This document shows, piece by piece, positions 1,930 through 17,765 of a stretch of 64,000 nucleotides of DNA (position 1 is the stretch's first letter; each line of letters opens with the position of its first letter). The stretch comes from an uncultured Alphaproteobacteria bacterium (GTDB lineage: Bacteria > Pseudomonadota > Alphaproteobacteria > CADEGL01), in NCBI GenBank assembly GCA_902826885.1, contig CADEGL010000010.1:4037-68036 (forward strand), written 5' to 3'. The notes beneath the pieces were generated by a model. That model saw only the letters and a list, made by a program, of their open reading frames with translations, was not told where the DNA came from and ran no database searches. A program made the position numbers and the translations under genes.

Positions 1930-2106
1930 TCAGTGTTTCGGCAACTTCTCGCCTGAGAAATTGTCGCGCTCGCCGCCCCCTTCGTTTTGGGACCCCCGCT
2001 TTGGATCGAGCTCCTGGCGGTGACCGCCGGTTGGGTTGCCGGGGTTGCGCGGCTTACGAGGCTTGGCTTTTGGTTCTGGGGCGGGTTTTTGATTCGGGTC
2101 GGCCAT
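1930..2106 (-). CDS. small hydrophilic, intrinsically disordered basic protein (58 aa)
   Basis: MADPNQKPAPEPKAKPRKPRNPGNPTGGHRQELDPKRGSQNEGGGERDNFSGEKLPKH. SD AGGAG lies 7 nt before the ATG. It is internal to the listed 1930..2151 ORF. Confidence 0.45.
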   Translation of the reverse strand: MADPNQKPAPEPKAKPRKPRNPGNPTGGHRQELDPKRGSQNEGGGERDNFSGEKLPKH

Positions 2107-2190
2107 TTCGATTCTCCTACCTTTGAAAGCCGGGTGGTGGCTTCTCGTCAAAGAGACAACCCGTATCCGCTCGATCGGGTTCGCGAAGAC

Positions 2191-2820: not shown

Positions 2821-2852
2821 CGCATCACTCCAGTCGGCGCCCCGACGCCGGG

Positions 2853-2927
2853 TTAACGGAACAGAAAGTAGATGAGGATCAGAACGGGGATCGGAACACC
2901 CAGAAGCCACAGCAAGAGGTAACGCAC
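2853..2927 (-). CDS. tiny hydrophobic peptide (24 aa, GTG start)
   Basis: VRYLLLWLLGVPIPVLILIYFLFR*. Very strong SD AAAGGAGG lies 6 nt upstream. It resembles the C-terminal 25 aa of the 1774..1905 peptide (RY-x-L...Y..F). Confidence 0.4.
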   Translation of the reverse strand: MRYLLLWLLGVPIPVLILIYFLFR

Positions 2928-2963
2928 GATCGCCCTCCTTTCGTTACGCGCGTCAAACGGGGC

Positions 2964-3245
2964 TCAATTCCCAAGCTTGCTCCCGGAGGCACCCTGTTCG
3001 CCCTGCGCCGCGCCGATCGTCTCCATCGCGCGCTTCACGCGGTGAAGCATGTTTTCTTCACCGCCGCCCATGCCCTCTTCCTCGGCGACCGCCAACAGAC
3101 GCGCATCTTGTTCCCACTGCTGCAGAAGCTTGCGCTTCTGGGCCACGGTCAGGTTGGCGTCGTCCAGAACGTGTTGCGGCGTTTCGAAGCATTTGGCGGG
3201 GTTCTGAAGCGCTGCTTCGAAGTTGCCCGATGCTTTACGGCCCAT
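2964..3245 (-). CDS. hypothetical protein (93 aa)
   Basis: The internal Met at 3245 is preceded by a GGAG SD. The upstream part of the listed 174-aa ORF lacks an SD and overlaps the divergent promoter region. Confidence 0.45.
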   Translation of the reverse strand: MGRKASGNFEAALQNPAKCFETPQHVLDDANLTVAQKRKLLQQWEQDARLLAVAEEEGMGGGEENMLHRVKRAMETIGAAQGEQGASGSKLGN

Positions 3246-3390
3246 GTCTGTACTCCAGGTTTTCCAACGAGCGCGACAACTTAGGCGTTGCCACGTGGTC
3301 GTGACTCCCAAACGCCTCGCGCGGATCGGGGTTCCCTTGGATCGGGCCCGGGCTGGCTCCTTAGGTTCCTCGATAAGTGCCGGTTTCACC

Positions 3391-3416
3391 GGAACCATTT
3401 CGTGGACACACACGTT
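3391..3416 (+). promoter_or_regulatory. sigma-EcfG type promoter: GGAAC-N17-CGTT
   Basis: GGAAC at 3391-3395 and CGTT at 3413-3416, 75 nt upstream of the DUF1328 gene. Confidence 0.6.
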
Positions 3417-3490
3417 GAAATCCATGACCGGCGGGTCCGAAACGGCCTGCCGCGGATCGTTGGTTCGCCGGAAGAAGGGGAGGCACACGG

Positions 3491-3661
3491 ATGTTGTATT
3501 GGGCCTTGGTTTTCCTTGTTGTCGCGTTGGTCGCCGGCCTATTGGGCTTTGGTGGCGTGGCCGCTACATCGATGGGGATCGCCCAGATCCTGTTCTTTGT
3601 CTTCCTGGTCCTGTTCCTGGTGATGCTGGTGGCAAACCTGCTGCGCAGCGGCCGGCCATAA
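3491..3661 (+). CDS. DUF1328-family small membrane protein (56 aa)
   Basis: [51 protein letters not shown] matches the DUF1328 consensus. SD GGGGAGG precedes it. Not in the ORF list because it is shorter than 60 aa. Confidence 0.8.
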
Positions 3662-3690
3662 CAGCCGGCGAGTTCTGAGGAGGCACGATC

Positions 3691-3990
3691 ATGTCGAAGA
3701 TCAACGGGCGCACGGACACATCGGCGTTGCGATCTGATATCGCGGCATTGCAGGAAAACCTCGATGCCTTGGTGAAGCAGCTCAAGTCGGCTGAAGGCGG
3801 GGAAACGTGGGTCGACCATCAGGTGGACGAGTTACGGCGCGTGCTGGAGCCCGTTATCGAAGCCACCAAGGCCCAGGGTGAGAAAACCGCCGCCATGGCG
3901 CGGGAGACCGTCGAAAACCATCCGCTTTCCAGTGTTCTGGTCGCGTTCGTGGGCGGCGCACTGGCGGCGCTTTTGCTCAGCCGCCGCTGA
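3691..3990 (+). CDS. DUF883 (ElaB/YqjD-like) membrane-anchored stress protein
   Basis: Coiled-coil N-terminus with a C-terminal TM anchor (VLVAFVGGALAALLLSRR). SD GAGGAGG precedes it. Confidence 0.8.
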   Translation: MSKINGRTDTSALRSDIAALQENLDALVKQLKSAEGGETWVDHQVDELRRVLEPVIEATKAQGEKTAAMARETVENHPLSSVLVAFVGGALAALLLSRR

Positions 3991-4006
3991 CGCGATCTTT
4001 TTGAAG

Positions 4007-4444
4007 ATGGAGACCGGGGTGTCCAGCGTGATCGAAAGTATCGGCGTGGTTGCGTCGCGCGCGTCGTTCCATGCGCGGCGGGCTTGGCGACAAATGGTGC
4101 TGGATGCCTGCGTCGGTCTGTTTCTGGTCTTGATGCTGACGATCGCGGGCGGGCTGTTGGTCTACGCGGCCTTCGCTTTCGCCCAGACCATGATGCCGGA
4201 CTATGCGGCTGCGCTCAGCCTGGCCGTATTGATCGGTTTGCTCTGTGCCGTTGTCTATGTCGCCTATTCGAGGGCGGACGAACGGCGTTCGCTTGACTCA
4301 CGGGCGGCGCGAGTTCAACCCGCGGAGTCAGCCGCGGCCGGTGCGGCTTCTCTCCCGCCATCCGCCGTCAGCTTGGCCCTTATGATCGCGCTCACCGCGG
4401 CCCGTCTTTGTGGGCGGAGTCGTGGTACGCGCTCCGATTGTTGA
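4007..4444 (+). CDS. YqjE-like (phage-holin-family) membrane protein
   Basis: The gene order DUF883 then a 2-TM protein mirrors yqjD-yqjE. The Met at 4007 lies inside the listed 3878..4444 ORF. Confidence 0.5.
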   Translation: METGVSSVIESIGVVASRASFHARRAWRQMVLDACVGLFLVLMLTIAGGLLVYAAFAFAQTMMPDYAAALSLAVLIGLLCAVVYVAYSRADERRSLDSRAARVQPAESAAAGAASLPPSAVSLALMIALTAARLCGRSRGTRSDC

Positions 4445-5017
4445 GCCTCGTTCACCATCATCGCCTGGGCCGCGGTGCCCCTGTCCGGTCTTGTTCATGA
4501 GGGCGACGATCTCTGCGCGCGCGCGATTGACGCGCGACTTGATCGTGCCCACCGCGCATTTGCACACGGCGGCCGCTTCCTCGTAGCTGAGCCCTGCGGC
4601 GCTGACCAAGATCAGAGCCTCGCGCAGCTTCACCGGCACGGTCATCAACAACGCCTGGACTTCCTTTAGTTCGAGCGCGGACTGTTGGTTGCCCGACACG
4701 GCGACGAGCGCTTCCGGCACGTCTTCGATCCCGCCGCCGTCATAGCGCCGGCGGCGATATTCGCTGAGATGACGGTTGCGGAGGATGGTGAACAGCCACG
4801 CGCGAAGGTTTGTGCCGGGACGGAACAGATGCTCGCCGGCAATGGCGCGCATCAGCGTATCCTGCACCAGATCGTCGGCGCGGTCGCGGCTGCCAGTCAG
4901 GCCGCGCGAAAAGGCGCGGAGCTGGGGAACAAGTTTGATGATATCGGCACGGAATTCTTCGCTGTCCGACGCGGACGGAGGAGCTTGGGGATGCGAAGTG
5001 GGCTCATTGGACGTCAT
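4328..5017 (-). CDS. ecfG: ECF sigma factor, EcfG type (general stress response sigma)
   Basis: Sigma-70 region 2 (DLVQDTLMRAIAGEHLFRPGTNLRAWLFTILRN) and region 4 (LSYEEAAAVCKCAVGTIKSRVNRAR). It overlaps nepR by 4 nt and is divergent from phyR. The 3' end overlaps the convergent gene by 117 nt. Confidence 0.85.
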   Translation of the reverse strand: MTSNEPTSHPQAPPSASDSEEFRADIIKLVPQLRAFSRGLTGSRDRADDLVQDTLMRAIAGEHLFRPGTNLRAWLFTILRNRHLSEYRRRRYDGGGIEDVPEALVAVSGNQQSALELKEVQALLMTVPVKLREALILVSAAGLSYEEAAAVCKCAVGTIKSRVNRARAEIVALMNKTGQGHRGPGDDGERGSTIGARTTTPPTKTGRGERDHKGQADGGWRERSRTGRG

Positions 5018-5274
5018 TCGTCCCCCGGCTTGCGAGAGCCCTTCGCTTTAGCGTCCCCCCTATTGTTCTTGGGGGCGTGAACCAATTTCATCATGTCGTC
5101 GGGCAGAGGCTCGTCCAGGACCGACTGATAAAGGGCTTTCAGTTGCCCATCCCACCAATTGTCTATGGGCGTCGGCTGGTCGGCTGTCGGATTGCTTTGG
5201 CTCATCGTCTTCTTGGCCGAATCTTTCTTGGCTGTGGCCGACTTTGTGCCATCGCCATCGTTAGACGAGTTCAT
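5014..5274 (-). CDS. nepR: anti-sigma factor NepR
   Basis: A small protein encoded immediately upstream of ecfG and translationally coupled (ATGA overlap). Position and size are as in the canonical nepR-ecfG operon. An alternative start is the Met at 5205. Confidence 0.65.
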   Translation of the reverse strand: MNSSNDGDGTKSATAKKDSAKKTMSQSNPTADQPTPIDNWWDGQLKALYQSVLDEPLPDDMMKLVHAPKNNRGDAKAKGSRKPGDE

Positions 5275-5420
5275 CTACGGTGCGCTCCCCCTTCGTCGCC
5301 GTCCGGCCGCCCCTCGCTGGCGGCGGCCTTGGCGGCACGGAACTCGGCGGCGTTGCTGCCGCCGACCCCGAGGGTGGCTGACCATCCTGGGTCGGCGCAA
5401 CGGCGGGGCCGGTATAGGAA

Positions 5421-5445
5421 TACGCACCAAAGAACGGTTTGTTCC
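5421..5445 (-). promoter_or_regulatory. possible EcfG-type promoter for nepR-ecfG (GGAAC-N16-CGTA, one mismatch)
   Basis: On the minus strand GGAAC (plus 5441-5445) is followed by 16 nt and CGTA. Confidence 0.3.
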
Positions 5446-5497
5446 CCGCTTTCGGTTTTATTCGCGCGGCATAAGGGGTTATGCCCGCCCATCGTTG

Positions 5498-5522
5498 GGA
5501 ACCTTCCGCGCGGTTACCCGTT
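5498..5522 (+). promoter_or_regulatory. sigma-EcfG type promoter upstream of phyR: GGAAC-N16-CGTT
   Basis: GGAAC at 5498-5502 and CGTT at 5519-5522. phyR autoregulation by EcfG is the established pattern. Confidence 0.6.
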
Positions 5523-5689
5523 GAAGTCCTGAATATCCATGCCGATTTACCGGGGGCGGGGTCATGGCCGACCGATAATCCAGGAACGGCATCTCCAGTC
5601 CAAACCCGTGTTCACCACCGGGTTCTGAATCGAGGCCGTCGCCACGCCGAGTCCGCGGCGCGGGGGAAATGCAGAGAGAGGATCGCGGA

Positions 5690-6517
5690 ATGTCGAACTC
5701 GGAGGAACTCGTCGCCTTGCTGCCGTATCTTCGCCGCTATGCGCGCGCGTTGACCGGCTCGCAGGAGCGCGGCGATCGGTACGTCCGGCTGTTTCTCGAG
5801 GTTATCCTGCAAGAGCCCGCGCGGCTTTCCCGCGACGGGGATCTGAAGCACAACATGTTCAAAGCGTTCCACGAAACATGGGACGCGGTCGCGGTGGAGG
5901 CTGAGGGCCCGGATGCGGCCGAGTTGAGCGGCAAGGCCAAGCTCGAGCAGCGGATCGCAGCTCTGCCCGCGCGTCATCGCCAAGTTCTATTGCTGGTGTC
6001 GCTGGAAGGCTTCCCCGTCACCAGGGCGGCCGAAATTATCGGGATCTCCGAGCAGGAGGCACGCCAGGACCTGCTGGATGCGCGCCTGGAGCTGCAGAAG
6101 AATTCGGGAGCCAAGGTCCTGATCATCGAGGACGAAACGGTGATCGCCATGGACATCGCGGTCACTGTGCGCTCCGCCGGCCATATGGTGGTGGGCGTGG
6201 GGGCCACCTTCAAGGAAGCCGTCGGCCTGGCCGAGGAACACCTGCCGGACCTGGTGCTAGCGGATATCCACCTGAAGGGTGGCGACAGCGGTATCGACGC
6301 GGTGGATAGGATTCTGCGCGGCATGACGGTGCCAGTCATCTTCATCACGGGCTTTCCGGAGGCGTTATTGACCGGCAAGAAGGTCGAGCCCGCCTTCGTC
6401 ATCACCAAGCCGTTTGATCCTGAGACGCTGACGGCCGCCATCGGCCAGGCCTTGTCGTTCAGGCCAAGCGGCGGCCGAAACGGCAAACAGAAGGCCGGCG
6501 CGCAGAAGCACGCCTGA
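5690..6517 (+). CDS. phyR: PhyR anti-anti-sigma response regulator (ECF-sigma-like N-terminal domain plus C-terminal receiver)
   Basis: N-terminus LPYLRRYARALTGSQ is sigma-like. The C-terminal REC domain has the phospho-Asp motif (LIIEDE...DLVLADIHL). The Met at 5690 has SD GAGAGAGG; the Met at 5669 is also possible. Confidence 0.85.
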   Translation: MSNSEELVALLPYLRRYARALTGSQERGDRYVRLFLEVILQEPARLSRDGDLKHNMFKAFHETWDAVAVEAEGPDAAELSGKAKLEQRIAALPARHRQVLLLVSLEGFPVTRAAEIIGISEQEARQDLLDARLELQKNSGAKVLIIEDETVIAMDIAVTVRSAGHMVVGVGATFKEAVGLAEEHLPDLVLADIHLKGGDSGIDAVDRILRGMTVPVIFITGFPEALLTGKKVEPAFVITKPFDPETLTAAIGQALSFRPSGGRNGKQKAGAQKHA

Positions 6518-6538
6518 TTTCATCCTTCCTCGAGCGCG

Positions 6539-6569
6539 CCCGGACGGGAGGCATCCCGTCCGGGTTTTT
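6539..6569 (+). terminator. rho-independent terminator after phyR
   Basis: CCCGGACGGGA-GGCA-TCCCGTCCGGG followed by TTTTT. Confidence 0.75.
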
Positions 6570-6613
6570 ATTTGACAGATCCGTCCCGGCCGGACGAATG
6601 CGCGCGCGATTCA

Positions 6614-6639
6614 GGAACCGCGCAGGGTCCCCTCGCGTT
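6614..6639 (+). promoter_or_regulatory. sigma-EcfG type promoter: GGAAC-N17-CGTT
   Basis: GGAAC at 6614-6618 and CGTT at 6636-6639, 57 nt upstream of the PRC-barrel gene. Confidence 0.6.
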
Positions 6640-6695
6640 TTTACCCCGAACACCGAATGACCACGTTCGTGGCTCGGCAAATCGGGAGACCCCGC

Positions 6696-7643
6696 ATGCT
6701 CAACTCCACGTTTCGCAAATACGCGTTGCCCACGACAGCGCTGGCCGTCGTGCTGTTCGCCACCGCTTGCGCGCCCGCCAAGCGCGAGGAAGCGCAAGTC
6801 CTGACCCAGACGCAGAGTGTCGCCTTCACGCGCGATATGAAGATCGATTACGCCAACGGTATCTGGGGCACCCAGACCATGACGCCGTCGGCCGACCTTT
6901 TGCTGACGAAGAACAGCAATCTGATCGGCAGCCGCGTCTCGGATTCCAACGGCGTGTCTTGGGGCACGGTGGTCTTCATGATGGTTGAAGCCAATCAGCA
7001 GCAGCGTCCGATGTACGCGGTGGTCGCCGCCGATGGCGTGTCCGACACTTATATCGCCGTACCCATGTCCGCGGTTCGCGTCGCGGGCGGCGGCGTGCAG
7101 GTCGACACCACGGTTGCCGATCTGAACCGCGTGCCGAAATACACCTTGGCCGGCTTGCAACGCCGCCACGCGGTGGCCAGCAACAGCCCGCCGTTGGTGG
7201 CGCCGGCCGTCGCTACGGCGGCAACGCCGCTCATCACCGCGGCACCCGGTACGGTCGCCGTGATTCCCGGCGCCGGCGTGGTCACGGCTCCGGTCGTCAT
7301 GGCTCCCGTGGTGGTCGCACCCGCGCCGGTCGCGGCTGTCACGCCTGCGCCGCAAAACGTCAATCTCAGCACGCGCAGCGACCTGGTTGGACGCGCCTTC
7401 GTCGATAGCTACGGCAATCAGCTCGGCACGGTGAACTACGTGGCCGTGATGCCCGGTACGGTGGATGCGCGTTACGTCGTGGTAAGCGGTCCTATGTTCG
7501 GCGCTGGGAACCAGGTCTTCGTGCCGGCTTCGCAGGTTCATATGTCCGGCGGCCGCGTCATGGCCGATGTTCCGACGGCCACGCTGGCTCAGTCCCAGCG
7601 ATTTCAGGCCGCGGAGATGCAGCGCTTCGCCGTCGTGAACTGA
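6696..7643 (+). CDS. secreted protein with two PRC-barrel domains joined by an Ala/Pro/Val-rich linker
   Basis: Signal peptide MLNSTFRKYALPTTALAVVLFATACAPA. PRC-barrel-like N- and C-terminal segments. SD GGGAGA precedes it. Confidence 0.65.
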   Translation: MLNSTFRKYALPTTALAVVLFATACAPAKREEAQVLTQTQSVAFTRDMKIDYANGIWGTQTMTPSADLLLTKNSNLIGSRVSDSNGVSWGTVVFMMVEANQQQRPMYAVVAADGVSDTYIAVPMSAVRVAGGGVQVDTTVADLNRVPKYTLAGLQRRHAVASNSPPLVAPAVATAATPLITAAPGTVAVIPGAGVVTAPVVMAPVVVAPAPVAAVTPAPQNVNLSTRSDLVGRAFVDSYGNQLGTVNYVAVMPGTVDARYVVVSGPMFGAGNQVFVPASQVHMSGGRVMADVPTATLAQSQRFQAAEMQRFAVVN

Positions 7644-7719
7644 CGCATCTTCGGGTCCGAAACGAAAGCGGCGCGCCCGTGGCCGGCGCGCCGCTGGCTT
7701 TGGAAGATTGGAAAGACGC

Positions 7720-8127
7720 TTACCCCGTGGCCGCCTTCGGCGCCTCGCGGAACTCCGGCTCGGACATCAACTGGTCCTTCGTCTTGCCGACTTTCACGAC
7801 GCCCCGCTGTTCGTCCACGCGGAGCTCGTTCCAGGCCACCGTTACCTTCTTGCTGCCGAGACCGAGGAATCCGCCGACCTTCACCACGGCGTAATCGACA
7901 TGGCCGTCCTTGTTGACCACCACGTTGTTGATCCGGCCGATATGGGCGTTGTCTTCCGTCTGCACCTTCATGCCGACCAGCGAGCGGCCGGCCACGGCCG
8001 GCGCTTCGGCCACAGCGGGAGCCGAGGCGGCTGCCGGAGCGGATGGCTGGGGTGCCGCGGTCTGGGCGTTGGCCGTCAGGACCGTCGCGGCCGATAAGGC
8101 AACGCCGAGCAGCAGAGCTTTGAACAT
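7720..8127 (-). CDS. PRC-barrel domain protein (secreted)
   Basis: Signal peptide MFKALLLGVALSAATVLTANA. The PRC barrel (GRSLVGMKVQTEDNAHIGRINNVVVNKDGHVDYAVVKVGGFLG) is typical of GSR-regulated PRC proteins. Confidence 0.75.
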   Translation of the reverse strand: MFKALLLGVALSAATVLTANAQTAAPQPSAPAAASAPAVAEAPAVAGRSLVGMKVQTEDNAHIGRINNVVVNKDGHVDYAVVKVGGFLGLGSKKVTVAWNELRVDEQRGVVKVGKTKDQLMSEPEFREAPKAATG

Positions 8128-8194
8128 CTGTCACTCTCCATCGTTATGTGCGCCACGGCGCGACACCGTAGCGGCTCTATGGAATTCAACCTTG

Positions 8195-8219
8195 GGAAAA
8201 CCGGACGGTTCCGCGCGTT
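8195..8219 (+). promoter_or_regulatory. probable EcfG-type promoter variant: GGAAA-N16-CGTT
   Basis: One mismatch in the -35 element. It lies 105 nt upstream of the second csbD paralog. Confidence 0.4.
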
Positions 8220-8323
8220 TTTGGGGTATCGGCGCCTTGTCGCGGAACTTCCTCGGCGCGCGGCGGGTTGGACCGGCACGAGGGCGCTACCGCAGCGCCG
8301 ATTCCGGAAACGAAGGAGCCGAC

Positions 8324-8521
8324 ATGAATTGGGATACGACCAAGGGCAACTGGAATCAGTTCAAGGGCAAGGTCAAGGAGCAGTGGGGCAAGCTGACCGA
8401 CGATGATCTCGCCCGCATCGAAGGCAAGCGTGACCAGCTGCTTGGCCGGGTGCAGGAGCGTTACGGCATCGAGAAGGACGAGGCCGAGCGGCAGGTAAAG
8501 CAGTTCGAGAGCCGCCACTAG
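8324..8521 (+). CDS. CsbD-family general stress protein (second paralog)
   Basis: MNWDTTKGNWNQFKGKVKEQWGKLTDDDLARIEGKRDQLLGRVQERYG. SD AGGAG precedes it. It is internal to the listed 7910..8521 ORF. Confidence 0.85.
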   Translation: MNWDTTKGNWNQFKGKVKEQWGKLTDDDLARIEGKRDQLLGRVQERYGIEKDEAERQVKQFESRH

Positions 8522-8576: not shown

Positions 8577-9737
8577 CTAGCGTCCGGTCAGAAAGGCGCG
8601 GAAGCGCCGTGCCACGTCCTTCGGCGCGACAGTGGGGCGGCCCAGCTTTTCCATCGAACCCGGCGCGATGCGGGCGTGGATCAGCGACGGGCCCGGTGTC
8701 TTGAGCGCGGCGCGGAAAGCATCTTGGAAACCATCGGCATCGTCGCAGCGTGCGGCCGCAGCATAGCCGCAAGCCAGCGCCGCCGAGGCGAAATCGACCG
8801 AGGGCGACACCGTGGCTTGGCCGCCGGTCGAATCGTGCGTGCCATTGTCCAGGATGATGTGGATCAAATTCCTCGGCGCATAGGCACCGATCGTGGCCAG
8901 GTTACCCATCTTCATCAGCGCGGCCCCGTCGCCATCCAGCACCACCACGGGGCGTTCGGTGTTCAATGCCACGCCCAGGCCCATGGCGCTGGCGCCGCCC
9001 ATGGAGCCGACTTGGTAGAGATGCTGTTCGCGGTCGGCGAGCGTGAACAGCTCGCGGCCGCATTTGCCGGTCGTGGCGACCACGGCGGCTTCGGTGGGTA
9101 CGATCTCGAGAAAGCGCGCCAGGATATCGGCGCGCGCAGGCCGCGCGCCGTGCCGGCGCAAATCGGCCGAGGCGCCCGCCGGACGGGGCGCGGGCGTTGT
9201 CTGGTCCAATCCGTCGTCACGCACGGAATCTTTTTCCATCACGAACGCGAAAGGCAGGGCGCTCGACGCCATGTGCGAAAGCGCGGCTTCGAGCGCGGGT
9301 GCCACCTGGTCTTCCGCGCGCGGGAAGGGCGCGTGGCGGATTTCCATGGTCTCCAGCAGGCGCTGGGTGATCTGGCCCATCAGCGCGTGCTGCGGCTCGT
9401 CCTTCAAGCCTGGCTGGCCGCGCCAGGTCACGATCAGGAGGGTCGGGATTTGGAACGGATAGTTGAGGGAGGTGAGCGGATTGACCGTGTTGCCGAGGCC
9501 TGAGTTCTGGCACATCACCGCCGTCTCGCGCCCGGCCAGCCATGCGCCCGCCGCGATGGCCACCGCTTCCCCCTCGCTTGCCGCGCCGACATAGCGGATG
9601 CGTTTGTCGGAGATGACGCGGTTGATCAGCGGCGTCAGGAACGAGCAGGGCACGCCCGTATAGAAATCGACGCCGCGCGCCCGCGCGGCGTCGAGGAAGG
9701 CGTCCGCCGAAATCTGGCTAGAGGAAGTTGCGGGCAT
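8577..9737 (-). CDS. ppd: phosphonopyruvate decarboxylase (ThDP-dependent)
   Basis: [26 protein letters not shown] and the overall Ppd/AepY/sulfopyruvate-decarboxylase architecture. The start at 9737 ([14 protein letters not shown]) overlaps the upstream gene by 20 nt. Confidence 0.8.
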
Positions 9738-11385
9738 TCGCCAAGTCGAAGGCGTCGTTGACGTCGAGCCACTGGCCCGCGACATAGGCCACGTCCACAC
9801 GCACGCCGCGCGAAACCAGGCGGCCGAACAGATCGGGCAGGCCCGCCGTCTTCCAGGAGCCGTCCGCCTTCATGAAGGCGATCTCCTCGCGTACCAGGGC
9901 CGCTCCCTTGGCGCTCAGTTTGGCCAGGCCGACCCATTCGCCGTCGACGGCGTCTGGCTTCAGGATGCCGCCGATCCCCGTGATATGGGCCGGCTGGTCG
10001 TCCAGCACGCCGGCCGTGGAGGGGCGTGAGCAATTGACCAGATCGCGCGTGCGGCCGCCGCCCACGCCTTCGCGCGCCATCCACAGCGCATCGACGCTCA
10101 AGACAATATCGCCCGGCGCATCGAGCAGCGCCGACAGGATGTGGTTGCGGAACAGAATGTCGCCGTAGCTGATCAAGCACTCGCCTTCGATCTGCTTTTC
10201 GGCGCAGGCCAAGGACGCCACCTCGCCCGTGGTTTCGTAGGCGTCGTTGTCGACAACGCGGATCGAGGGGACGGTTACGGCCTCCTTGCGATAACCGCGC
10301 ACGACCGTCACGTCGCGCAGGCCTTGCTCGCGTAAGGCGCCGACCAGGCGGCGGAGCAACGGCTGGCCGCGAATGTCGACCATGCATTTCGGCCGGTCGG
10401 CGGTCAGCGCCTCCAAGGTGCTGCCGCGCGAGGCCGCCAGCACCACGGCCTTGGGCTTCGACTTGGCCGGGCCCAGATAGCGGCGCTCGGCCTCATTGAG
10501 CTCTGCATTCTCCGACAGGTCGAAGACGTCTTGGACGCTGGCCACGCGGCCCTCGACGCCCGACAGATTGCCGTCGCGGCGGATGCGCTCCGACACTTCG
10601 CGCATGGCCGTGATGGCGGCGCGCAGATTGTGGTTGGCCCAGATCACCAGCGAGATCCCGGCGTTGGCGAAGGCTTCGGTCGGTGTCGCGTGATACATGG
10701 TCGGCACGATCACGACCGGGCAGCGGCCGCCCCATTCCGCCATGAAGCGCAAGATCTCGTCGGCCGTCTTCAGCTTGGAGTGGACCAAGATCGCGTCCGC
10801 TCCGGCCGCGTGATAGGCCTCGGCCCGGCGCAGCGCCTCGTCCAAACCCCAGCCCGAGATCAGCGCTTCGACGCGCGCGACCATGCAGAAATCGTCGTCC
10901 AGCTGGCTGTCCTTGCCGGCTTTGATCTTGCCGCAGAATTCCTCGATGTCGGCCAAGGGCTGGGCGTCGCCGATGAAGCTGTTGGTCTTGGGGAACAGCT
11001 TGTCCTCGATGCACACGCCCGCGATGTTGCGCTGGCACAGTTTGCGCACCAGGCGGCGCACGTTGTTGAAGTTGCCGTAGCCCGTGTCGCCGTCGACCAG
11101 GATGGGCACGCGCGTCGCATCCGACATGAACTCCAGGACTTCCAGCACCTGGGTCCAGGACGCTTCGTTGGAATCGCGCACGCCGAGCGCAGCCGAGATC
11201 GACAGGCCCGAGGCCCAGATGCCCTCGAAGCCGGCTTGTTCGACGATCTTCGCCGACAAGCCGTTATGGGCTTCCATGATGAAGGACAGCTCCGGCACGT
11301 TCAGCATCGCGCGCAGCCGCGCGGCCTTGCTGGGCTGCGTGTCGGCGGGCGGTGTCCGGGGGATCGCGACCGGTCTCTGAGCCAT
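9718..11385 (-). CDS. pepM: phosphoenolpyruvate phosphomutase fused to a C-terminal nucleotidyltransferase (cytidylyltransferase-like) domain
   Basis: The N-terminal 290 aa are PEP mutase ([16 protein letters not shown]...[11 protein letters not shown]...CIEDK). The C-terminal ~250 aa have an NTP-transferase fold ([33 protein letters not shown]). Confidence 0.85.
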
Positions 11386-11450: not shown

Positions 11451-11472
11451 GCCGTTCCGGTCCTGGAACGGC
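11451..11472. promoter_or_regulatory. perfect 8-bp inverted repeat GCCGTTCC-N6-GGAACGGC in a divergent intergenic region
   Basis: It lies between the pepM start (11385) and the acyl-CoA synthetase start (11536), so it is a candidate operator. Confidence 0.3.
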
Positions 11473-11535: not shown

Positions 11536-13155
11536 ATGGCCGCAAGCACCCATGATGCCGCCGCGTTCCGGCGGGCCGTCGAGGCCGAACCGTTGCCCGA
11601 AACCTTGCCGGCGCTCCTGGACCGGGCGGCGTCGCACCACCCCGACCGGGTGATTTGGAACTTTTTCGAGCGGAACGAGAGCTATACCTACCGCCAGGCG
11701 CAGGAGCGCGTGGCGCGGGCGGCCAACGCCCTGCGCGCGCTCGGTGTGCGCAAAGGTACCCATGTGGGGATCATGTCGCCCAACGTCGGGGCCTTCCCCA
11801 TCACCTGGTTGGCGCTCGGGCGGCTTGGTGCCGTGGCGGTCGCGCTCAACACCCGTTACACGCCGCGCGAGGTCGATTACGTCCTGCGCGACAGCGACGC
11901 CGATTTCTTCATCGTGCACGAAAGCCTGCGCCCGGTTTATGAGGCCATTCCCGACAAGCCGCCGCGCATCGCGAAGGACCGCATCGTCGTCATCGATGGC
12001 GCGGGCTCCGGCTACAAAGTCTGGGACGATCTGGTCAATGCGGCCTCGTCCGACTTCACGGCGCGGGAGCCGGTCGCTTGCGACGACGTGCTCAACATCC
12101 AATACACCTCGGGCACCAGCGGCTTCCCGAAAGGTTGCCTCTTGACGCACCGCTATTGGCTCACCATGGGCAAGGCGCACAGCGCGGTGGCCGAGGTCCC
12201 CATTGAGCGCGCGCTCTACAACCAGAACTTCTTCTATCTGGACGGGCCGTGCATCGCGACCATGTGCATGTTCCTGGGCGCCACGTTCTTCTTCGCTTCC
12301 AAGCCCAGCGCGGCCAAGTTCGTCGAATGGGCGCGCACGCACCGCATCAACTATCTGTTCTTCTTCGAGGTGCTCTATAAGCAGCCCGAGACGCCGCTCG
12401 ACGGGCAGAGCGATCTGAAGATGATCCACATCTTCGGCTTCAACAAAAAATACCACGCCGATCTCGAACGCCGCTTCGCGCTCATCGCGCGCGAGTCCTA
12501 CGGCATGACCGAGGCCGGCTGCATCACTTACATGCCGGTTGCGGACAAGCACATGGTGGGCTCGGGCTCCTGCGGCATCCCCGCACCCTGGCGCGAGGTG
12601 AAGATCGCGGGCGACGACGGCGTGCCCGTCGCGCGCGGCGAGATCGGCGAATTGTGGGTGCGCGGTCCGGGCATGATGCTGGGCTATTACAAGAAGCCCG
12701 AGGCCAACGCCGAGTCGTTGCGCGACGGCTGGTTCCTGACCGGCGACCTGCTGCGGCAGGACGAGGCCGGCTACTACACCATCGTAGGCCGGAAGAAGGA
12801 CATGATCCGCCGCAACGCCGAGAACGTGGCCGCGCGCGAGGTCGAGGCCGTGCTGCGCGGCCTGCCGCAAGTGAAGGAGGCCGCCGTGGTGCCGGTGCCG
12901 GACGAGCGCGTGGGCGAGGAGATCAAGGCCTATCTGCAGCTTCAGCCGGGCCTCCAGCACGCCGATCTTCCGCCCGAGCAGGTGATCGCCCACTGCAAGG
13001 CGAATCTCGCGAGCTTCAAGATCCCGCGCTATATCGCTTTCGCCGACACGTTTCCAATGACCGATTCGGACCGGGTCGAAAAGAAAAAGCTGATCGCCGG
13101 CGTGCCCGATCTCACGCGCGACAGTTACGATCGCGTCGACAACATCTGGCGATAG
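11536..13155 (+). CDS. AMP-dependent acyl-CoA synthetase/ligase
   Basis: AMP-binding motifs YTSGTSGFPKG and GYGMTEAG, plus a C-terminal lysine region. The listed ORF 10531..13155 is extended 5' only because its frame lacks a stop; that extension is antisense to pepM. Confidence 0.85.
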   Translation: MAASTHDAAAFRRAVEAEPLPETLPALLDRAASHHPDRVIWNFFERNESYTYRQAQERVARAANALRALGVRKGTHVGIMSPNVGAFPITWLALGRLGAVAVALNTRYTPREVDYVLRDSDADFFIVHESLRPVYEAIPDKPPRIAKDRIVVIDGAGSGYKVWDDLVNAASSDFTAREPVACDDVLNIQYTSGTSGFPKGCLLTHRYWLTMGKAHSAVAEVPIERALYNQNFFYLDGPCIATMCMFLGATFFFASKPSAAKFVEWARTHRINYLFFFEVLYKQPETPLDGQSDLKMIHIFGFNKKYHADLERRFALIARESYGMTEAGCITYMPVADKHMVGSGSCGIPAPWREVKIAGDDGVPVARGEIGELWVRGPGMMLGYYKKPEANAESLRDGWFLTGDLLRQDEAGYYTIVGRKKDMIRRNAENVAAREVEAVLRGLPQVKEAAVVPVPDERVGEEIKAYLQLQPGLQHADLPPEQVIAHCKANLASFKIPRYIAFADTFPMTDSDRVEKKKLIAGVPDLTRDSYDRVDNIWR

Positions 13156-13166
13156 GGGACACGGGA

Positions 13167-13559
13167 ATGGCCGACAAGGAACCGGTAACCGAGGGGATGC
13201 TGCGCGTGCGGCTGGGGCTGCACGACACGCACTACGCGGACGGCCTCATCCCCGCGGCCACGATCATGCGGCTGTTCGCCGACTGCCAGTCCGAGGTGTC
13301 GATCCGCATGGACGGTGTCGACGGCTATATGGCGGCGTATGAGAAGTCGGAGTTCCTGAAGCCGATCTACGCCGGCGACTATCTTGAAATTCGCGCGAAG
13401 CTGATCGGCCAGGGAAACCGCTCGCGCCGCTTCGCCATGGAAGCCTTGCGCTGCTTGGCGACGAAGGAGCTGGGCGGCGGCCTGTCGGGCGGCACCATCT
13501 TCGATCCGCCCGAACTGGTGGCGCGCGCGACGCTGGTGTGCGTGAAGCCGCGCACCTGA
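13167..13559 (+). CDS. hotdog-fold protein (thioesterase/dehydratase or aminoacyl-CoA ammonia-lyase-like)
   Basis: A 130-aa single hotdog domain translationally adjacent to the acyl-CoA ligase (12-nt gap). Confidence 0.55.
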   Translation: MADKEPVTEGMLRVRLGLHDTHYADGLIPAATIMRLFADCQSEVSIRMDGVDGYMAAYEKSEFLKPIYAGDYLEIRAKLIGQGNRSRRFAMEALRCLATKELGGGLSGGTIFDPPELVARATLVCVKPRT

Positions 13560-13603
13560 CGGTCTGCTGGAGCCCGGTGCGGCGGAGTTACCGCACCTGC
13601 CGG

Positions 13604-14302
13604 TCAGTAGCGCGTCGCCGCGGCTTTGTCGGGTGCCGGAAACTCCAGCATCTTGCCGGCGCGCGCTTCCATGGCGTCGCGTGGGCGCAAGCGGCGCGCC
13701 TGGGCCGCGCTCAGCAGCGGGAAATGGCGCGTCTCGTCGATTGCCAGCGCCGCGTCCCAGCAATGGTCCTTGTTCGTGACCCACAGCGCGGGGTCTAGGC
13801 GGCGCAGATCGTAGGGTTGCGAATAGCGCCGCAAGGTCTTTTTCGTGCCGATGACGTACTCGTGGAAGTAGGACAGCGCCAGCTCGCGCGGGCTGCGATA
13901 GATCGGGTCGCGCCAGCGCAGCCAGATATGGTTGCTCTTCGAGATGGCGCCCCAGTGCCTGCCGTGACGGAACAGCGCCACGACATGATCGTCGTCGCCC
14001 TGGGCTTGGAAATCCATCAGCAGCGGCTTTTGACCCGCGAGCCACAGGGCGCAAGCCGCGACGAAGGCGCCCTCGATGCAATGGGCATGATTCGCATCCA
14101 GGGTGGAGGCCACCGACAGGCAGGTATCGCCGCCTTGCTCGAAATTGGTCGGCAGGGCAGAGACGAAATCCTGGATACGCTCTGGCGTGCGCAGCTTCGC
14201 CAGGGCGGACACATGAGCGCGCGCGAGCCCGAGCTTGCGCCCCAGCGCCGCGCCGCGCAGGCGGCTTCGCCTAGAAACGGTTGGCGCGGAACGGCGTGAC
14301 AT
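13604..14302 (-). CDS. hypothetical protein (possible Cys-His-Asp papain/transglutaminase-like fold)
   Basis: HCIEGAFVAACALWLAG...HVVALFRHGRHWGAI. No confident family assignment and the start is uncertain. Confidence 0.4.
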   Translation of the reverse strand: MSRRSAPTVSRRSRLRGAALGRKLGLARAHVSALAKLRTPERIQDFVSALPTNFEQGGDTCLSVASTLDANHAHCIEGAFVAACALWLAGQKPLLMDFQAQGDDDHVVALFRHGRHWGAISKSNHIWLRWRDPIYRSPRELALSYFHEYVIGTKKTLRRYSQPYDLRRLDPALWVTNKDHCWDAALAIDETRHFPLLSAAQARRLRPRDAMEARAGKMLEFPAPDKAAATRY

Positions 14303-15566
14303 CGAAATCCGTTTTGCGGCCGGCGACCAGATCGGCGATGGCCTTGCCGGTGACGGCGCCGAGGGTCAGGCCGTAATGGTCGTGGCCGAAGGCCAGCATG
14401 ACGCCCGGCGTATTGGGCGCGGGGCCGACGACCGGCTTTGAATCCGGCAGCGACGGCCGCATGCCCATCCACGGCACCGCCCCCTCGGTATTCAATCCCG
14501 GCACTAGGCGCTTGGCACGCTTGATCATCGGGTCCACGCGGCGGTAATCGGGCGGCGCATGCACGCTGGCCAACTCGTCGGTGCCGGCGATGCGCAGGCC
14601 CAATTCCATCGGCGTCATATAGAATCCGCCTTCGGCGGACTTCACCGGGATGCGCAGTTCGACGCCGGGATTGGGCAGCATGGCGTGATAGCCGCGCTCG
14701 GTGTCCAGCGGCACGCGCGCACCGGCCTGCGCGGCGAATTTCTTGGACAAGGCACCCGCCGCGACCACGACCAGATCGGCGTCCAAAGGTGCTCCGTCCG
14801 TGTGCACGGTCGACTTTCCGCCGCCCTTGGCCTCGATGCGCCTGGCTTCGCCGCGCACGAACCGGCCGCCGCGTTTCGCCGCCAACTCGGCGATGCGCTG
14901 GCTGTGCTTCAAGGGATTGATGACGGTGTCCATGTCGGTGCGGTGGATGCCACCCGCGAAATTACCGCTGAGCGCGGGCTCGATCTGGCGGATTTCTTCC
15001 GGTCCCACCACGTTCAATGGCACGCCGTGGCGCTGGCGCATCTTCACGCTGGTTTGGATGTTGTCGAAGGCCGCCTTGGTCTCGAACACTTCCAGCGCGC
15101 CGCGCGGACGGATCAGGTCGGCCAGTCCCGCATCGGCCACGATGGGCTCATAGCATTTGCGCGCATGCGCGATCATCGCGCCGAAGTCGCGCATGAAGGC
15201 CTCGACCTTCTCTGGCGTGGCGGATGCGACGAAGCGCAAGAGCCAGGGCGCCAAGTTCAGCAGATAGGCCCAGCGGATGGTCAAGGGGCCCATCGGGTCC
15301 ATCAGCATGCCGGGCACGCGCTTGAGGATGCCGGGCGTGGCCAAGGGCAGGAAGGTCGAGTCCGAACGCTGGCCGGCATTGCCATAGGAGCAGCCTTCGC
15401 CGGGCCCGCGCGGATCGATCCAGGTGACCTGCCAGCCGTCGCGCTGCAGATAGGTGCCGCAGCACAGCCCCACGATGCCTGCGCCGATCACCACCGCGTG
15501 GCCGCGGCCGCTTGTACCCTGAGAATTCACGGTGTCCCCCATTGGTTGACCCGAGAAAAAGACCAC
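14271..15566 (-). CDS. FAD-dependent D-amino-acid dehydrogenase-like oxidoreductase
   Basis: VVIGAGIVGLCCGTYL dinucleotide-binding motif and DAO-family layout similar to DadA. The start could be 15566 or 15542. Confidence 0.7.
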   Translation of the reverse strand: MVFFSGQPMGDTVNSQGTSGRGHAVVIGAGIVGLCCGTYLQRDGWQVTWIDPRGPGEGCSYGNAGQRSDSTFLPLATPGILKRVPGMLMDPMGPLTIRWAYLLNLAPWLLRFVASATPEKVEAFMRDFGAMIAHARKCYEPIVADAGLADLIRPRGALEVFETKAAFDNIQTSVKMRQRHGVPLNVVGPEEIRQIEPALSGNFAGGIHRTDMDTVINPLKHSQRIAELAAKRGGRFVRGEARRIEAKGGGKSTVHTDGAPLDADLVVVAAGALSKKFAAQAGARVPLDTERGYHAMLPNPGVELRIPVKSAEGGFYMTPMELGLRIAGTDELASVHAPPDYRRVDPMIKRAKRLVPGLNTEGAVPWMGMRPSLPDSKPVVGPAPNTPGVMLAFGHDHYGLTLGAVTGKAIADLVAGRKTDFDVTPFRANRF

Positions 15567-15626
15567 ACCAGGCGCGCGACGGCAATTCGGTTAGCATGGC
15601 ACCCCCAATCGGACGGAGAAGCGGGC

Positions 15627-16013
15627 ATGGCGGCGCGTTGGAACCTGTGGCTGGTCTTGGCTGGATTGAACGGCGCGGCCTTCGTCGCGCTGGGCGCTTA
15701 TGGCGCGCACGGATTAGGCGATGCGCCCCAGACGCAGCGCTGGTTCGACATCGCGTTGCGCTATCACGCCTGGCATGCGGTGGCCGTGCTGGCCGTCGCA
15801 TTGTGGGCACCCGCGAAAACCGCGGCGCGCTGGCTGCGCGGTGGCGCATTGGCGCTGTTTCTCATCGGCACGATTCTCTTCAGCGGCTCGCTCTACCGCA
15901 TGGCGCTCACGGATTTGCCGTTGTTCGCGGGCGCGGCGCCGGTCGGCGGCGCGAGTTTTATTCTCGGCTGGCTCGTGCTCGCCGGGGCCGGTTTTGTCAG
16001 ACGGGAGGCTTGA
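15627..16013 (+). CDS. DUF423 family membrane protein
   Basis: Four TM helices with an SD GGAGAAG. It is internal to the listed 14559..16013 ORF, whose 5' part is antisense to the DAO gene. Confidence 0.65.
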   Translation: MAARWNLWLVLAGLNGAAFVALGAYGAHGLGDAPQTQRWFDIALRYHAWHAVAVLAVALWAPAKTAARWLRGGALALFLIGTILFSGSLYRMALTDLPLFAGAAPVGGASFILGWLVLAGAGFVRREA

Positions 16014-16659
16014 AGCTGACCGCCAATTCGGCCGCGGCCGCTTCCAGCAGAGCGCCCATGATCCTTGGTGCGCGGGCGCGCCGTCCCGATTTGCCGAAGA
16101 AGGGGCTGCCTCCTTCCATCTGAGCGTAGATGCAGGCGGCCAGATTGCGCCGCGCGGCCTCGTCCAGATCCGGCCGCAGCGCGGCCAGCAGGATCGCGTA
16201 CTGACTGGTGACCCAGTCGTACCAATCGCCGACGATGGCGCCGGCCTCTTCGTCATGCGCGGCGAAGGCCCATTTTTCCCAGGCTTGCGCCTTCACCACC
16301 TCGTCCCGGTTCAACGAGTTCTCGTAGCGCAGCATGGTCAGGAGCCGCGCGCGCGGCTCGACCGGCGCCGACGCCAGATGCTTCGCCCAGCGGTCCTTCT
16401 GCCGGTTCACCTGATAGGACAGGACGGCGCGCAAAAGGGTGGTCTTGGTCGGGAAATAATATTGAAGGTTGCCTTTGCGCACGCCGGTGGCGCTGGCGAT
16501 TTTGCCGATGCTCAGGCTGGCGTAACCCTCGCGACCCATGATCTCGAGCGCAGTCGCCAGGATATGGTCCGAGGTGCGGCGGCCCTTGGGCGAACGCGGG
16601 CGGGCGCTGCCACGGGCCGGCGCGGCGCGGCGCGGCGATTCCGTTCGTCGTGCGGCCAC
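15997..16659 (-). CDS. TetR/AcrR family transcriptional regulator
   Basis: N-terminal HTH (ILATALEIMGREGYASLSIGKIASATGVRKGNLQYYFPTK). It is divergent from the phyH-like gene. Confidence 0.85.
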   Translation of the reverse strand: MAARRTESPRRAAPARGSARPRSPKGRRTSDHILATALEIMGREGYASLSIGKIASATGVRKGNLQYYFPTKTTLLRAVLSYQVNRQKDRWAKHLASAPVEPRARLLTMLRYENSLNRDEVVKAQAWEKWAFAAHDEEAGAIVGDWYDWVTSQYAILLAALRPDLDEAARRNLAACIYAQMEGGSPFFGKSGRRARAPRIMGALLEAAAAELAVSFKPPV

Positions 16660-16754
16660 TGTGCTGAATCCTCTGTATTCCGGGTCCCCCGCGCTAAATT
16701 AAGCGCCACGCGCCCGCTAGTCACGGATTGACTTGCCTGAATGATTCTTCCTTA

Positions 16755-16774
16755 ATTAGGTCGTACGACCTAAT
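16755..16774. promoter_or_regulatory. perfect 20-bp palindrome ATTAGGTCGTACGACCTAAT, a candidate TetR operator
   Basis: It lies 14 nt upstream of the phyH-like start, in the TetR-divergent intergenic region. Confidence 0.6.
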
Positions 16775-16787
16775 AACAGAGGCCGCC

Positions 16788-17705: not shown

Positions 17706-17765
17706 CGCGTCCGGCGCTGGCGAGGGACAATCGGGCGGGATTGCCGCGACGAGGGGGAATACGTC

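Follow-up and report, generated by a model that had tools for sequence, protein, structure and literature searches.

The window analysed here, an alphaproteobacterial stretch of 64 kb, carried a two-gene phosphonate locus in which a PEP mutase (PepM or Ppm) fused to a C-terminal nucleotidyltransferase (NTase) was followed by phosphonopyruvate decarboxylase (Ppd). This locus was an ordinary member of the commonest phosphonate core class. On balance, it was probably not a distinct pathway but a conserved phosphonyl-tailoring front end, namely a stripped-down and lineage-specific form of a seven-gene phosphonolipid-type cluster whose remaining partners are unlinked. The only unusual feature of the locus was that the follow-on genes adjoining the pair in its relatives were missing from the 64 kb.

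The fusion gene, ppd and the limits of the operon

The two genes, their boundaries and the residues discussed below were located as follows:

8324..8521 (+): csbD-like gene, convergent, 3' operon boundary (NF007748, 1.9e-30; the syntenic gene of the related locus L001 matched PF05532, CsbD)
8577..9737 (-): ppd, phosphonopyruvate decarboxylase, 386 aa plus stop (TIGR03297, TPP domains, GDG-X26-N)
9718..9737 (-): overlap of 20 nt between the pepM stop (TAG, 9718-9720) and the ppd start (ATG, 9735-9737)
9718..11385 (-): pepM-NTase fusion gene, an ORF of 555 aa plus stop (PF13714 and PF12804; TIGR02320 above its cutoff)
10507..11313 (-): PEP mutase domain, residues 25-293 (TIGR02320, residues 24-293; Mytilus 1M1B; Foldseek)
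10978..11007 (-): Ppm-specific motif, residues 127-136, in which K133 corresponds to Mytilus K120 (translation; homologue alignment)
11173..11175 (-): D71, corresponding to the catalytic D58 of Mytilus PepM (alignment to 1M1B and to the D58A mutant 1S2U)
11451..11472 (no strand): palindrome GCCGTTCC-N6-GGAACGGC in the region upstream of pepM (sequence)
11536..13155 (+): divergent acyl-CoA ligase gene, 5' operon boundary, outside the module (AMP-binding and AMP-binding_C)

The N-terminal part of the fusion protein was a PEP mutase. Namely, PF13714 (PEP_mutase) covered residues 25-268 (1e-62, Pfam), and the NCBIfam model TIGR02320 scored 392 bits against an equivalog cutoff of 319.55; the models of the sister families (phosphonopyruvate hydrolase, PrpB and CPEP mutase) each stayed below their own cutoffs on this protein. 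The sequence of Mytilus edulis PEP mutase (1M1B/1PYM) matched the domain with E = 4e-119, and in Foldseek the two had a TMt of 0.75 and 64% identity, which extended across the entire PepM domain with all the catalytic residues retained. The mollusc enzyme, in contrast, is single-domain, whereas the window protein is fused. In the alignment to 1M1B, D58 and K120 of the Mytilus enzyme corresponded to D71 and K133, so that the two residues whose loss the preliminary description had named as grounds for abandoning its reading were both kept. The region of D71 read GVRDSNEA, compared with GVRASNEA in the D58A mutant 1S2U. Moreover, the motif EDKXXXXXNS, which defines Ppm (Rice 2019, PMC6697681), was present at residues 127-136, and together with D71 and K133 it was unchanged across 18 homologues.

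The Ppd product scored 445.6 bits with TIGR03297 (equivalog cutoff 312.5), contained both TPP_enzyme_N (PF02776) and TPP_enzyme_C (PF02775) according to Pfam, and showed the GDG-X26-N TPP motif in its translation. ORFs, Pfam and NCBIfam bore out the gene calls made earlier from the letters alone, including the order of PepM and the C-terminal NTase, the downstream ppd and the overlap of 20 nt; the csbD gene was also on the other strand as described. The same overlap was present in independent gene calls of a 94%-identical relative. At two other related loci (L086 and L003) the ppd ATG followed the pepM stop, whereas in the window clade the same codon was CAG and the start was shifted seven codons upstream. 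It is probable that the overlap couples the translation of pepM and ppd. On the other side of the fusion gene, the acyl-CoA ligase adjoined pepM in the window clade only.

The palindrome GCCGTTCC-N6-GGAACGGC was a possible operator or 5'-UTR hairpin. Its arms were invariant and its spacer varied in the window, L001, L006 and L002, although, with relatives as close as these, the evidence is not strong. General-stress control of pepM was rejected, as six of the seven EcfG-type motifs (GGAAC-N15-18-CGTT) in the window were in an adjacent stress locus and none was upstream of pepM. There was no Rfam match to a riboswitch or another known RNA in the whole window. We also rejected an attenuator in the form of a terminator-like palindrome of 12 bp within ppd (9694-9667), which was not kept in L001, L006, L086 and L003 and tracked the coding sequence; this palindrome was probably a coincidence.

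Both genes were under strong purifying selection, with dN/dS of about 0.055-0.17 over three diverged genomes (dS 0.34-0.56). In comparison to L001 and L006, dN/dS of pepM was 0.09-0.17 and low in both domains (0.11-0.22 for the NTase domain), and that of ppd was 0.055-0.07.

The fused nucleotidyltransferase domain

The C-terminal part of the fusion protein comprised two further features:

9721..10458 (-): LicC/PntC-like NTase domain, residues 310-555 (PF12804; matches to LicC and Tde1415 PntC)
10387..10440 (-): variant pyrophosphate loop, residues 316-333 (alignments to LicC, Tde-PntC, stand-alone PntC2 and fused-type representatives)

NTP_transf_3 (PF12804) covered residues 313-428 (3.7e-13; 50.4 bits against a gathering cutoff of 27), and this family together with PF13714 was found in all 120 of the best homologues listed. 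It has previously been reported that Ppm with PF12804 is the commonest Ppm architecture, accounting for 33% of 1485 Ppm, and that about 60% of Ppm are fused to some NTase (Rice 2019, Nat Commun, PMC6697681). The window protein resembled this class in having PF13714 with EDKXXXXXNS, then PF12804, and ppd immediately after. It differed from the characterised PntCs (Tde1415 and Ari-PntC), which are stand-alone or AEPT-fused and have GXGSR where the window type has AAS-R-G-x-x.

The preliminary description had presented the protein as the reverse of the fosfomycin enzyme Fom1. The domain order was right, but neither the relation to Fom1 nor the notability of the arrangement held, since Ppm-PF12804 is so common and the domain of Fom1 is of another Pfam family. 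Namely, the N-terminal cytidylyltransferase of Fom1 is PF01467 and acts on 2-hydroxyethylphosphonate (Rice 2019, PMC6697681). PF01467 is unrelated to PF12804, which ruled out a reversed or domain-swapped Fom1, and no N-terminal PF01467 domain was detected in the window protein, where PF13714 was followed by PF12804 only. What the two proteins have in common is a bifunctional PepM with a cytidylyltransferase-type domain for a downstream phosphonate, an activity that is predicted for the window protein.

Among the homologues with a solved structure, LicC from S. pneumoniae (1JYK, 2.4e-11) was the best match to the C-terminal domain, and Tde1415 PntC from T. denticola (6PD1/6PD2) matched with 2.3e-4 (6PD1). 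With both enzymes the domain shared the PK lysine and acidic metal ligands; the first Gly and Arg15 of their signature, however, were replaced. The consensus GXG(T/S)R, the pyrophosphate site and the roles of Arg15 and Lys25 have been defined for PntC, and R15A cut Tde-PntC activity to <10% (Rice 2019, PMC6697681). In the fused NTase the loop read S319-R320-G321-S322-T323...PK compared with the consensus GXG(T/S)RX4-8PK, and thus the GXG(T/S)R signature was lacking, without its first Gly and the Arg15 equivalent. All the Ppm-fused NTase domains examined were without the canonical arginine and had AAS-R-G in place. Throughout the fused subfamily the Arg15 position was variable and a basic residue (R or K) was conserved at the X position of the loop; the stand-alone PntCs adjoining the fusion in relatives had the canonical loop. 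The Lys25 equivalent K333 (P332-K333), G408-D409 and W539-L-D541 were conserved in the alignment, which was unreliable with respect to Tde-PntC around Lys153 and for the substrate-pocket residues. The AlphaFold model of the full-length fusion had a mean pLDDT of 72, with values <50 for residues 319-340 of the pyrophosphate loop, and the Foldseek matches listed for this model covered the PepM domain only.

Loss of the NTase loop had been named beforehand as evidence against the reading. In part this was observed, as S-R-G-S-T replaced G-x-G-T/S-R, but the replacement was conserved subfamily-wide, which favours a variant of the enzyme over an inactive one. The fused NTase probably works as an enzyme, judging from the conserved K333, D409 and W-L-D541, and because it is the only NTase able to supply a CMP-activated donor in L003-type clusters, which consist of MlaC, PepM-NT, Ppd, RidA and CDP-OH_P_transf with the fused domain as their sole NTase. 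The missing-Arg loop common to Ppm-fused NTases may be a new point; the literature searched contained no Ppm-fused PF12804 domain that has been characterised. These domains account for one third of all Ppm, and their non-canonical pyrophosphate loop bears on whether the commonest phosphonate fusion is bifunctional.

Related loci and the partners missing from the window

A seven-gene core called 'Burkholderiales CDP-OH' has been described, which comprises Ppm-PntC, Ppd, AEPT, a 2OG oxygenase, a second PntC and two phospholipid genes, and whose product is still uncharacterised (Li & Horsman 2022, PMC8942020). The window locus shared the core of the Ppm-PntC fusion and Ppd with this cluster, and its alphaproteobacterial relatives shared the accessory set; five of the seven genes, however, were absent from the 64-kb window. 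We surveyed 42 related alphaproteobacterial loci with >=5 kb on both flanks, identifying families by Pfam and AEPT by source names. Ppd was found at 35 loci, PhyH at 18, CDP-OH_P_transf and PntC2 at 15 each, AEPT at 14 (in each case <=10 kb from the fusion gene) and LPG_synthase_TM at 12. Among the loci surveyed, the window protein family was usually part of the known phosphonolipid-type cluster. The uncharacterised cluster known from Burkholderiales was also carried by alphaproteobacterial relatives of the window.

The nearest outgroup, L086 (72% identity), was sister to the window clade in the NJ tree. Around the same pair it had AEPT, PntC2, three CDP-OH_P_transf genes, two LPG_synthase_TM genes, MMPL and MlaC, with AEPT located two genes from ppd. 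When the L086 AEPT was used as a homology query, many matches at 65-72% identity were obtained, and the best NCBI candidate (P0275) belonged to another assembly. Dispersal was seen in other forms as well: bare pepM-NT/ppd pairs made up nine of the 42 loci and came from several lineages, seven loci had CDP-OH_P_transf without AEPT within 10 kb, and both PepM-NT without ppd and AEPT without pepM occurred in Alphaproteobacteria. Owing to this frequent scattering of the cluster genes, such genomes will be wrongly assigned to 'post-Ppd other' in inventories that rely on gene neighbourhoods.

Among the approximately 50 predicted genes of the 64 kb, Pfam identified no aminotransferase, CDP-alcohol phosphatidyltransferase, LicD-like protein or second NTase. 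With accessory-gene seeds from relatives, tblastn against the whole 64 kb gave the fused NTase domain itself as the sole match. By both approaches, linked AEPT, 2OG oxygenase, second PntC, CDP-OH_P_transf and LPG_synthase_TM were absent from the 64 kb, and, in agreement with the preliminary description, the pair had no linked transaminase, dehydrogenase or transferase. A PhyH gene of the window (16977-17705) was unrelated to the cluster oxygenase. The acyl-CoA ligase, a hot-dog protein, a DAO oxidoreductase, PhyH and BKACE were rejected as hidden partners, as they occurred with pepM in the window clade only and resembled a separate catabolic cluster.

Proposed pathway and alternative readings

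In the proposed pathway, the N-terminal domain would convert PEP to phosphonopyruvate, and the coupled Ppd would convert the latter to phosphonoacetaldehyde, drawing the unfavourable mutase equilibrium forward. We infer that 2-aminoethylphosphonate (AEP) would then be produced by a transaminase encoded outside the window, for which a dedicated AEPT of the PhnW type, like that of the relatives, is the simplest candidate. The C-terminal LicC/PntC-like domain would use AEP or a close derivative and CTP to form a CMP-phosphonate, from which an unlinked enzyme of the CDP-alcohol-phosphatidyltransferase type would move the phosphonate onto a membrane lipid as its head group, so that a phosphonolipid is formed. 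A lipid is suggested as the acceptor by the neighbours of the pair in relatives. Partner genes located elsewhere in the genome are the most likely reading of the conserved core, since the full set in L086 and the frequent gene dispersal in the family make unlinked dedicated partners the simpler explanation. For the same reasons, a 'minimal' module need not mean a new pathway, and the earlier suggestion of an uncharacterised surface-decoration pathway borrowing housekeeping enzymes was not upheld, although a role of the phosphonate in the cell envelope is plausible. An AEPT-independent route may still exist, as only one third of the related loci had AEPT <=10 kb from the fusion gene.

The model of the preliminary description is a self-contained minimal pathway, in which housekeeping (non-dedicated) transaminases or reductases convert phosphonoacetaldehyde and the fused NTase activates the resulting phosphonate, such as AEP or HEP, so that it can decorate the cell surface in an uncharacterised way. 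The lack of a dedicated partner in the 64 kb, the recurrence of bare pairs in several lineages, the purifying selection and the seven loci with CDP-OH_P_transf but without AEPT nearby are all consistent with it, and phosphonate pathways that use promiscuous aminotransferases with genes at another site have been described before (Li & Horsman 2022, PMC8942020). Nevertheless, we consider it unlikely, because in the sister lineage L086 a dedicated AEPT gene is two genes away from ppd, dedicated AEPT unlinked from pepM does occur in Alphaproteobacteria, and absence from a single 64-kb window says little for a genome of several Mb. The missing accessory genes of the sister lineage could also mean that a formerly complete cluster is in decay and that the pair left of it has ceased to make a product. 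This is barely credible given two intact ORFs with all catalytic residues, the low dN/dS reported above, and the re-establishment of an overlapping start following the loss of the ancestral ATG.

Another reading concerns the fused domain, which might be non-catalytic and serve Ppm in regulation or scaffolding by binding a nucleotide or a phosphonate, so that stand-alone PntCs carry out the activation and the module supplies phosphonoacetaldehyde or AEP. The degenerate GXG(T/S)R (S-R-G-S-T), the unconserved Arg15 position across the fused subfamily and the effect of R15A on Tde-PntC point in this direction, as does a canonical stand-alone PntC adjoining the fusion at 15 of the 42 loci, which suggests that the two are not redundant. 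However, Lys25, the GD aspartate and the acidic residue of W-x-D/E are conserved, the NTase domain has the dN/dS of 0.11-0.22 given above, and clusters with CDP-OH_P_transf and the fused NTase alone exist. Furthermore, the conserved R/K at the X position of the loop could replace Arg15; ADP-glucose pyrophosphorylases, for comparison, carry GGRGTRL. A non-catalytic domain is quite improbable. It is a similarly long shot that the AAS-(R/K)-G NTases are distinct enzymes for a non-AEP phosphonate (2-hydroxyethylphosphonate or a phosphonoacetaldehyde-derived species), or that they assist Ppm by allostery or channelling. In that case, the bare pepM-NT/ppd pair would suffice by itself to make a nucleotide-activated phosphonate, independently of AEPT.

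The window adds one soil or freshwater alphaproteobacterial lineage to the approximately 5% of bacteria that are able to make C-P compounds. As a separate observation, alphaproteobacterial phosphonolipid-type clusters often adjoined hopanoid genes.

The pepM-ppd operon and its products

The pepM-ppd locus was real, intact and ordinary. It belonged to the best-known phosphonate core class, and its stripped-down arrangement recurred in its family. What the preliminary description observed at the locus was right in every particular. The operon and its limits were as follows:

8324-8521, convergent: csbD-like gene downstream of ppd (downstream limit of the operon)
8577-9737, minus strand: ppd (phosphonopyruvate decarboxylase), 386 aa, best start ATG at 9737
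9718-9737, minus strand: 20-nt overlap of the 3' end of pepM with the 5' end of ppd
9718-11385, minus strand: pepM-nucleotidyltransferase (NTase) fusion ORF, ATG start, 555 aa
11536-13155, divergent: acyl-CoA ligase upstream of pepM (upstream limit of the operon)

The Pfam PEP_mutase domain covered residues 25-268 of the fusion (1e-62), and the protein scored 392 bits with the NCBIfam equivalog model for PEP mutase (TIGR02320, cutoff 319.55) while falling below the cutoff of the NCBIfam models for phosphonopyruvate hydrolase, methylisocitrate lyase and CPEP mutase. The PepM domain aligned to the Mytilus edulis PEP mutase with E = 4e-119, and the Foldseek match had 64% identity. The possible loss of the catalytic D58 and K120 equivalents, raised in the preliminary description, did not occur. 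Namely, D71 corresponded to D58 (the D58A mutant entry 1S2U and our query differed at exactly this residue), K133 aligned to K120, and the Ppm-diagnostic motif EDKXXXXXNS was present; none of these varied across 18 homologues. The ppd product contained both TPP domains (Pfam) and scored 445.6 bits vs 312.5 with TIGR03297, the phosphonopyruvate decarboxylase model.

The fusion itself was a common one. In an inventory of 1485 Ppm proteins, 59.5% were fused to another domain, with PF12804 as the commonest partner (33.0%) and PF01467, to which the Fom1 CyTase belongs, fused in 23.6% (Rice et al. 2019, PMC6697681). Our fusion had previously been described as the reverse of Fom1. Since its NTase is from PF12804, a different family from that of Fom1, and in its usual position, it was not a reversed Fom1. 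PF13714 was combined with PF12804 in each of the 120 best homologues from the database (66-96% identity, 531-622 aa), and their named sources were Alphaproteobacteria or Rhodospirillales MAGs.

The variant loop of the fused nucleotidyltransferase

The Pfam domain NTP_transf_3 (PF12804) spanned residues 313-428 of the fusion (3.7e-13). The closest solved relative of the C-terminal domain was LicC (1JYK, 2.4e-11), and the PntC domain of Tde1415 (6PD1) was a more distant match (2.3e-4). The nucleotidyltransferase consensus has been given as GXG(T/S)RX4-8PK (Rice et al. 2019, PMC6697681). The pyrophosphate loop of the fusion, S319-R320-G321-S322-T323...P332-K333 (window 10387-10440), deviated from it by having Ser in place of the first Gly and Thr at the Arg15 position. 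The Lys25 equivalent, the GD aspartate D409 and the acidic W-L-D541 motif were kept.

We also searched 1.84 billion cluster representatives using the C-terminal domain alone. Matches that were Ppm-motif proteins or fragments of such fusions carried LAA[S/T/G/A][R/K/Q]G-x-x-[L/F], even at identities as low as about 33%; their Arg15 position was unconserved, with no equivalent of the Arg15 of GXG(T/S)R. The Ppm-fused PF12804 domains (the window, homologues P0121-P0215 and others) shared the loop LAA[S/T][R/K]G-x-x-L. The canonical LAAGxGxRL was found in stand-alone proteins of about 255 aa further down the match list, and in stand-alone PntC genes adjoining the fusion in related loci. ADP-glucose pyrophosphorylases have the loop GGRGTRL, and by analogy R320 might fill the role of Arg15. 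The AlphaFold model was uninformative on R320 because residues 319-340 were below pLDDT 50. No biochemical characterisation of the Ppm-fused NTase subfamily was found in the literature searched, and it is the conserved non-canonical loop of this whole subfamily, not the window itself, that could be of interest to specialists.

Gene neighbourhoods of relatives and the candidate pathway

We called, clustered and annotated (recurrent clusters) the genes of 80 related loci from GTDB species representatives and several from metagenome assemblies. Neighbours were counted in the 42 loci, window included, that had 5 kb or more of sequence on each side. Ppd was found anywhere in the flank in 35 of them and directly followed the fusion, on the same strand, in 32. 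Accessory families were less frequent: PhyH-type oxygenase (18/42), CDP-OH_P_transf (15/42), stand-alone PntC (15/42), PhnW-type AEP transaminase (AEPT, 14/42) and LPG_synthase_TM (12/42). This set corresponded to the seven-gene core of the 'Burkholderiales CDP-OH' group, which has been read as a phosphonolipid pathway, probably for a 1-hydroxy-AEP lipid (Li & Horsman 2022, PMC8942020).

In a neighbour-joining tree of fusion proteins, the window and loci L001 and L006 formed a clade that was sister to locus L086 (72% identity). The L086 locus held three CDP-OH_P_transf and two LPG_synthase_TM genes, a stand-alone NTase, MMPL, MlaC, the fusion, Ppd and AEPT. Because this sister locus holds the full set, the window's bare pair is a derived state. 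Bare pairs, with Ppd and none of the five accessory families in the flank, occurred in 9 of the 42 loci and in several lineages. Additionally, seven loci had CDP-OH_P_transf without AEPT, and one close relative had the fusion without ppd. Phosphonate genes were often scattered. For example, on the 17-kb contig L090, which had no pepM, a PhnW-type AEPT that was 72% identical to that of L086 adjoined a GMC oxidoreductase, and a stand-alone Ppd-like TPP gene lay 4 kb from it on the opposite strand (L090 7017-13328).

According to the pathway that we favour, and consider moderately probable as a whole, the PepM domain converts PEP to phosphonopyruvate and Ppd, from the same two-gene operon, converts this to phosphonoacetaldehyde. 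An AEPT encoded outside the window would perform transamination to AEP, the fused PntC-like domain may carry out CMP activation, and, judging from the relatives' neighbourhoods, a CDP-alcohol-phosphatidyltransferase-type enzyme could attach the phosphonate to a membrane lipid as its head group. The preliminary description had proposed a truly minimal pathway relying on housekeeping enzymes, which seems unlikely to us. Among the approximately 50 predicted genes of the window, Pfam revealed no aminotransferase, CDP-OH_P_transf, LicD-like protein or extra NTase. In tblastn searches of the whole 64-kb window seeded with AEPT, cluster PhyH, CDP-OH_P_transf, LPG_synthase_TM, PntC2 (the stand-alone PntC), MlaC, MMPL, RidA, DegT and an epimerase, the sole match was the fused NTase domain itself.

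It was quite unlikely that the fused NTase domain is non-catalytic. The preliminary description had named loss of a GxGTRL-like loop as a refuting result. This loss was partly borne out: the loop was non-canonical, in a variant shared across the fused subfamily. The strict conservation of the AAS-R-G motif, the NTase domain dN/dS of 0.11-0.22, and some clusters whose only NTase is the fused domain, beside a CDP-alcohol phosphatidyltransferase, speak for an enzyme that is altered and not dead. That the pair is a relic appeared highly improbable, since dN/dS was low for both genes (0.09-0.17 in both domains of pepM and 0.055-0.07 in ppd; window vs L001 and L006, dS 0.34-0.56) and the ppd start was re-set after the ancestral ATG was lost. 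In the outgroups L086 (~11660-11680) and L003 (~11670-11690), the ppd ATG came after the stop codon of pepM. In the window clade this ATG is now CAG and the start lies seven codons upstream, inside pepM, which created the 20-nt overlap; independent gene calls gave an identical overlap in a 94%-identical relative. The re-set start fits expression that is coupled and maintained but does not fit decay, and by these substitution rates the pair is kept by selection.

Several other arrangements were observed among the relatives. Hopanoid genes (squalene-hopene cyclase, HpnH-like radical SAM with DUF3463, HpnG-like, IspH and HpnN-like MMPL transporter) abutted the phosphonate cluster in many of them (L007, L018, L023, L037, L050, L068, L075), a hint that phosphonolipid and hopanoid membrane remodelling are functionally linked. 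A subgroup (L028, L039, L040, L043, L045) had no ppd within 10 kb of the fusion and may represent an uncharacterised 'pre-Ppd' phosphonate pathway; its gene order was MFS and DegT-type aminotransferase (divergent), fusion, PhyH-like oxygenase, hydantoinase B and hydantoinase A. In AEPT-less clusters (L003, L004, L005, L012, L016), a RidA/YjgF-family gene (PF01042) was located between ppd and CDP-OH_P_transf.

Flanking regions and regulatory signals

No Rfam family matched anywhere in the 64-kb window. Inside ppd, a perfect GC-rich palindrome of 12 bp with a T-tract behind it resembled a terminator (9667-9694, minus strand, about ppd codons 15-24). It was rejected as such because the palindrome was not kept in relatives, and it probably just arises from the coding sequence. 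A general-stress-response neighbourhood of about 8 kb (window 500-8500) adjoined pepM-ppd, and the syntenic region of L001 encoded PhyR, NepR, an EcfG-like sigma factor, CsbD, PRC-barrel proteins, DUF1328 and SOD. EcfG-type motifs (GGAAC-N15-18-CGTT) numbered seven in the window vs 2.08 expected, six of them in 500-8500; the window scan placed none upstream of pepM. The signals were:

508, 798, 3311 (minus strand), 3391, 5498 and 6614: EcfG-type motifs of the stress-response neighbourhood
11451-11472: palindrome GCCGTTCC-N6-GGAACGGC, pepM/acyl-CoA-ligase intergenic region, upstream of pepM

The arms of this palindrome were invariant and its spacer variable in three close relatives, which means little because they were too similar (92% in this region). 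Finally, a catabolic-looking cluster adjoined pepM-ppd at 11536-20802, with synteny in L001 and L006 only. It encoded the acyl-CoA ligase, a 3-aminobutyryl-CoA ammonia-lyase-like hot-dog protein, a D-amino-acid-dehydrogenase-like DAO, TetR, PhyH, a BKACE β-keto-acid cleavage enzyme, MFS and a creatininase-family protein.
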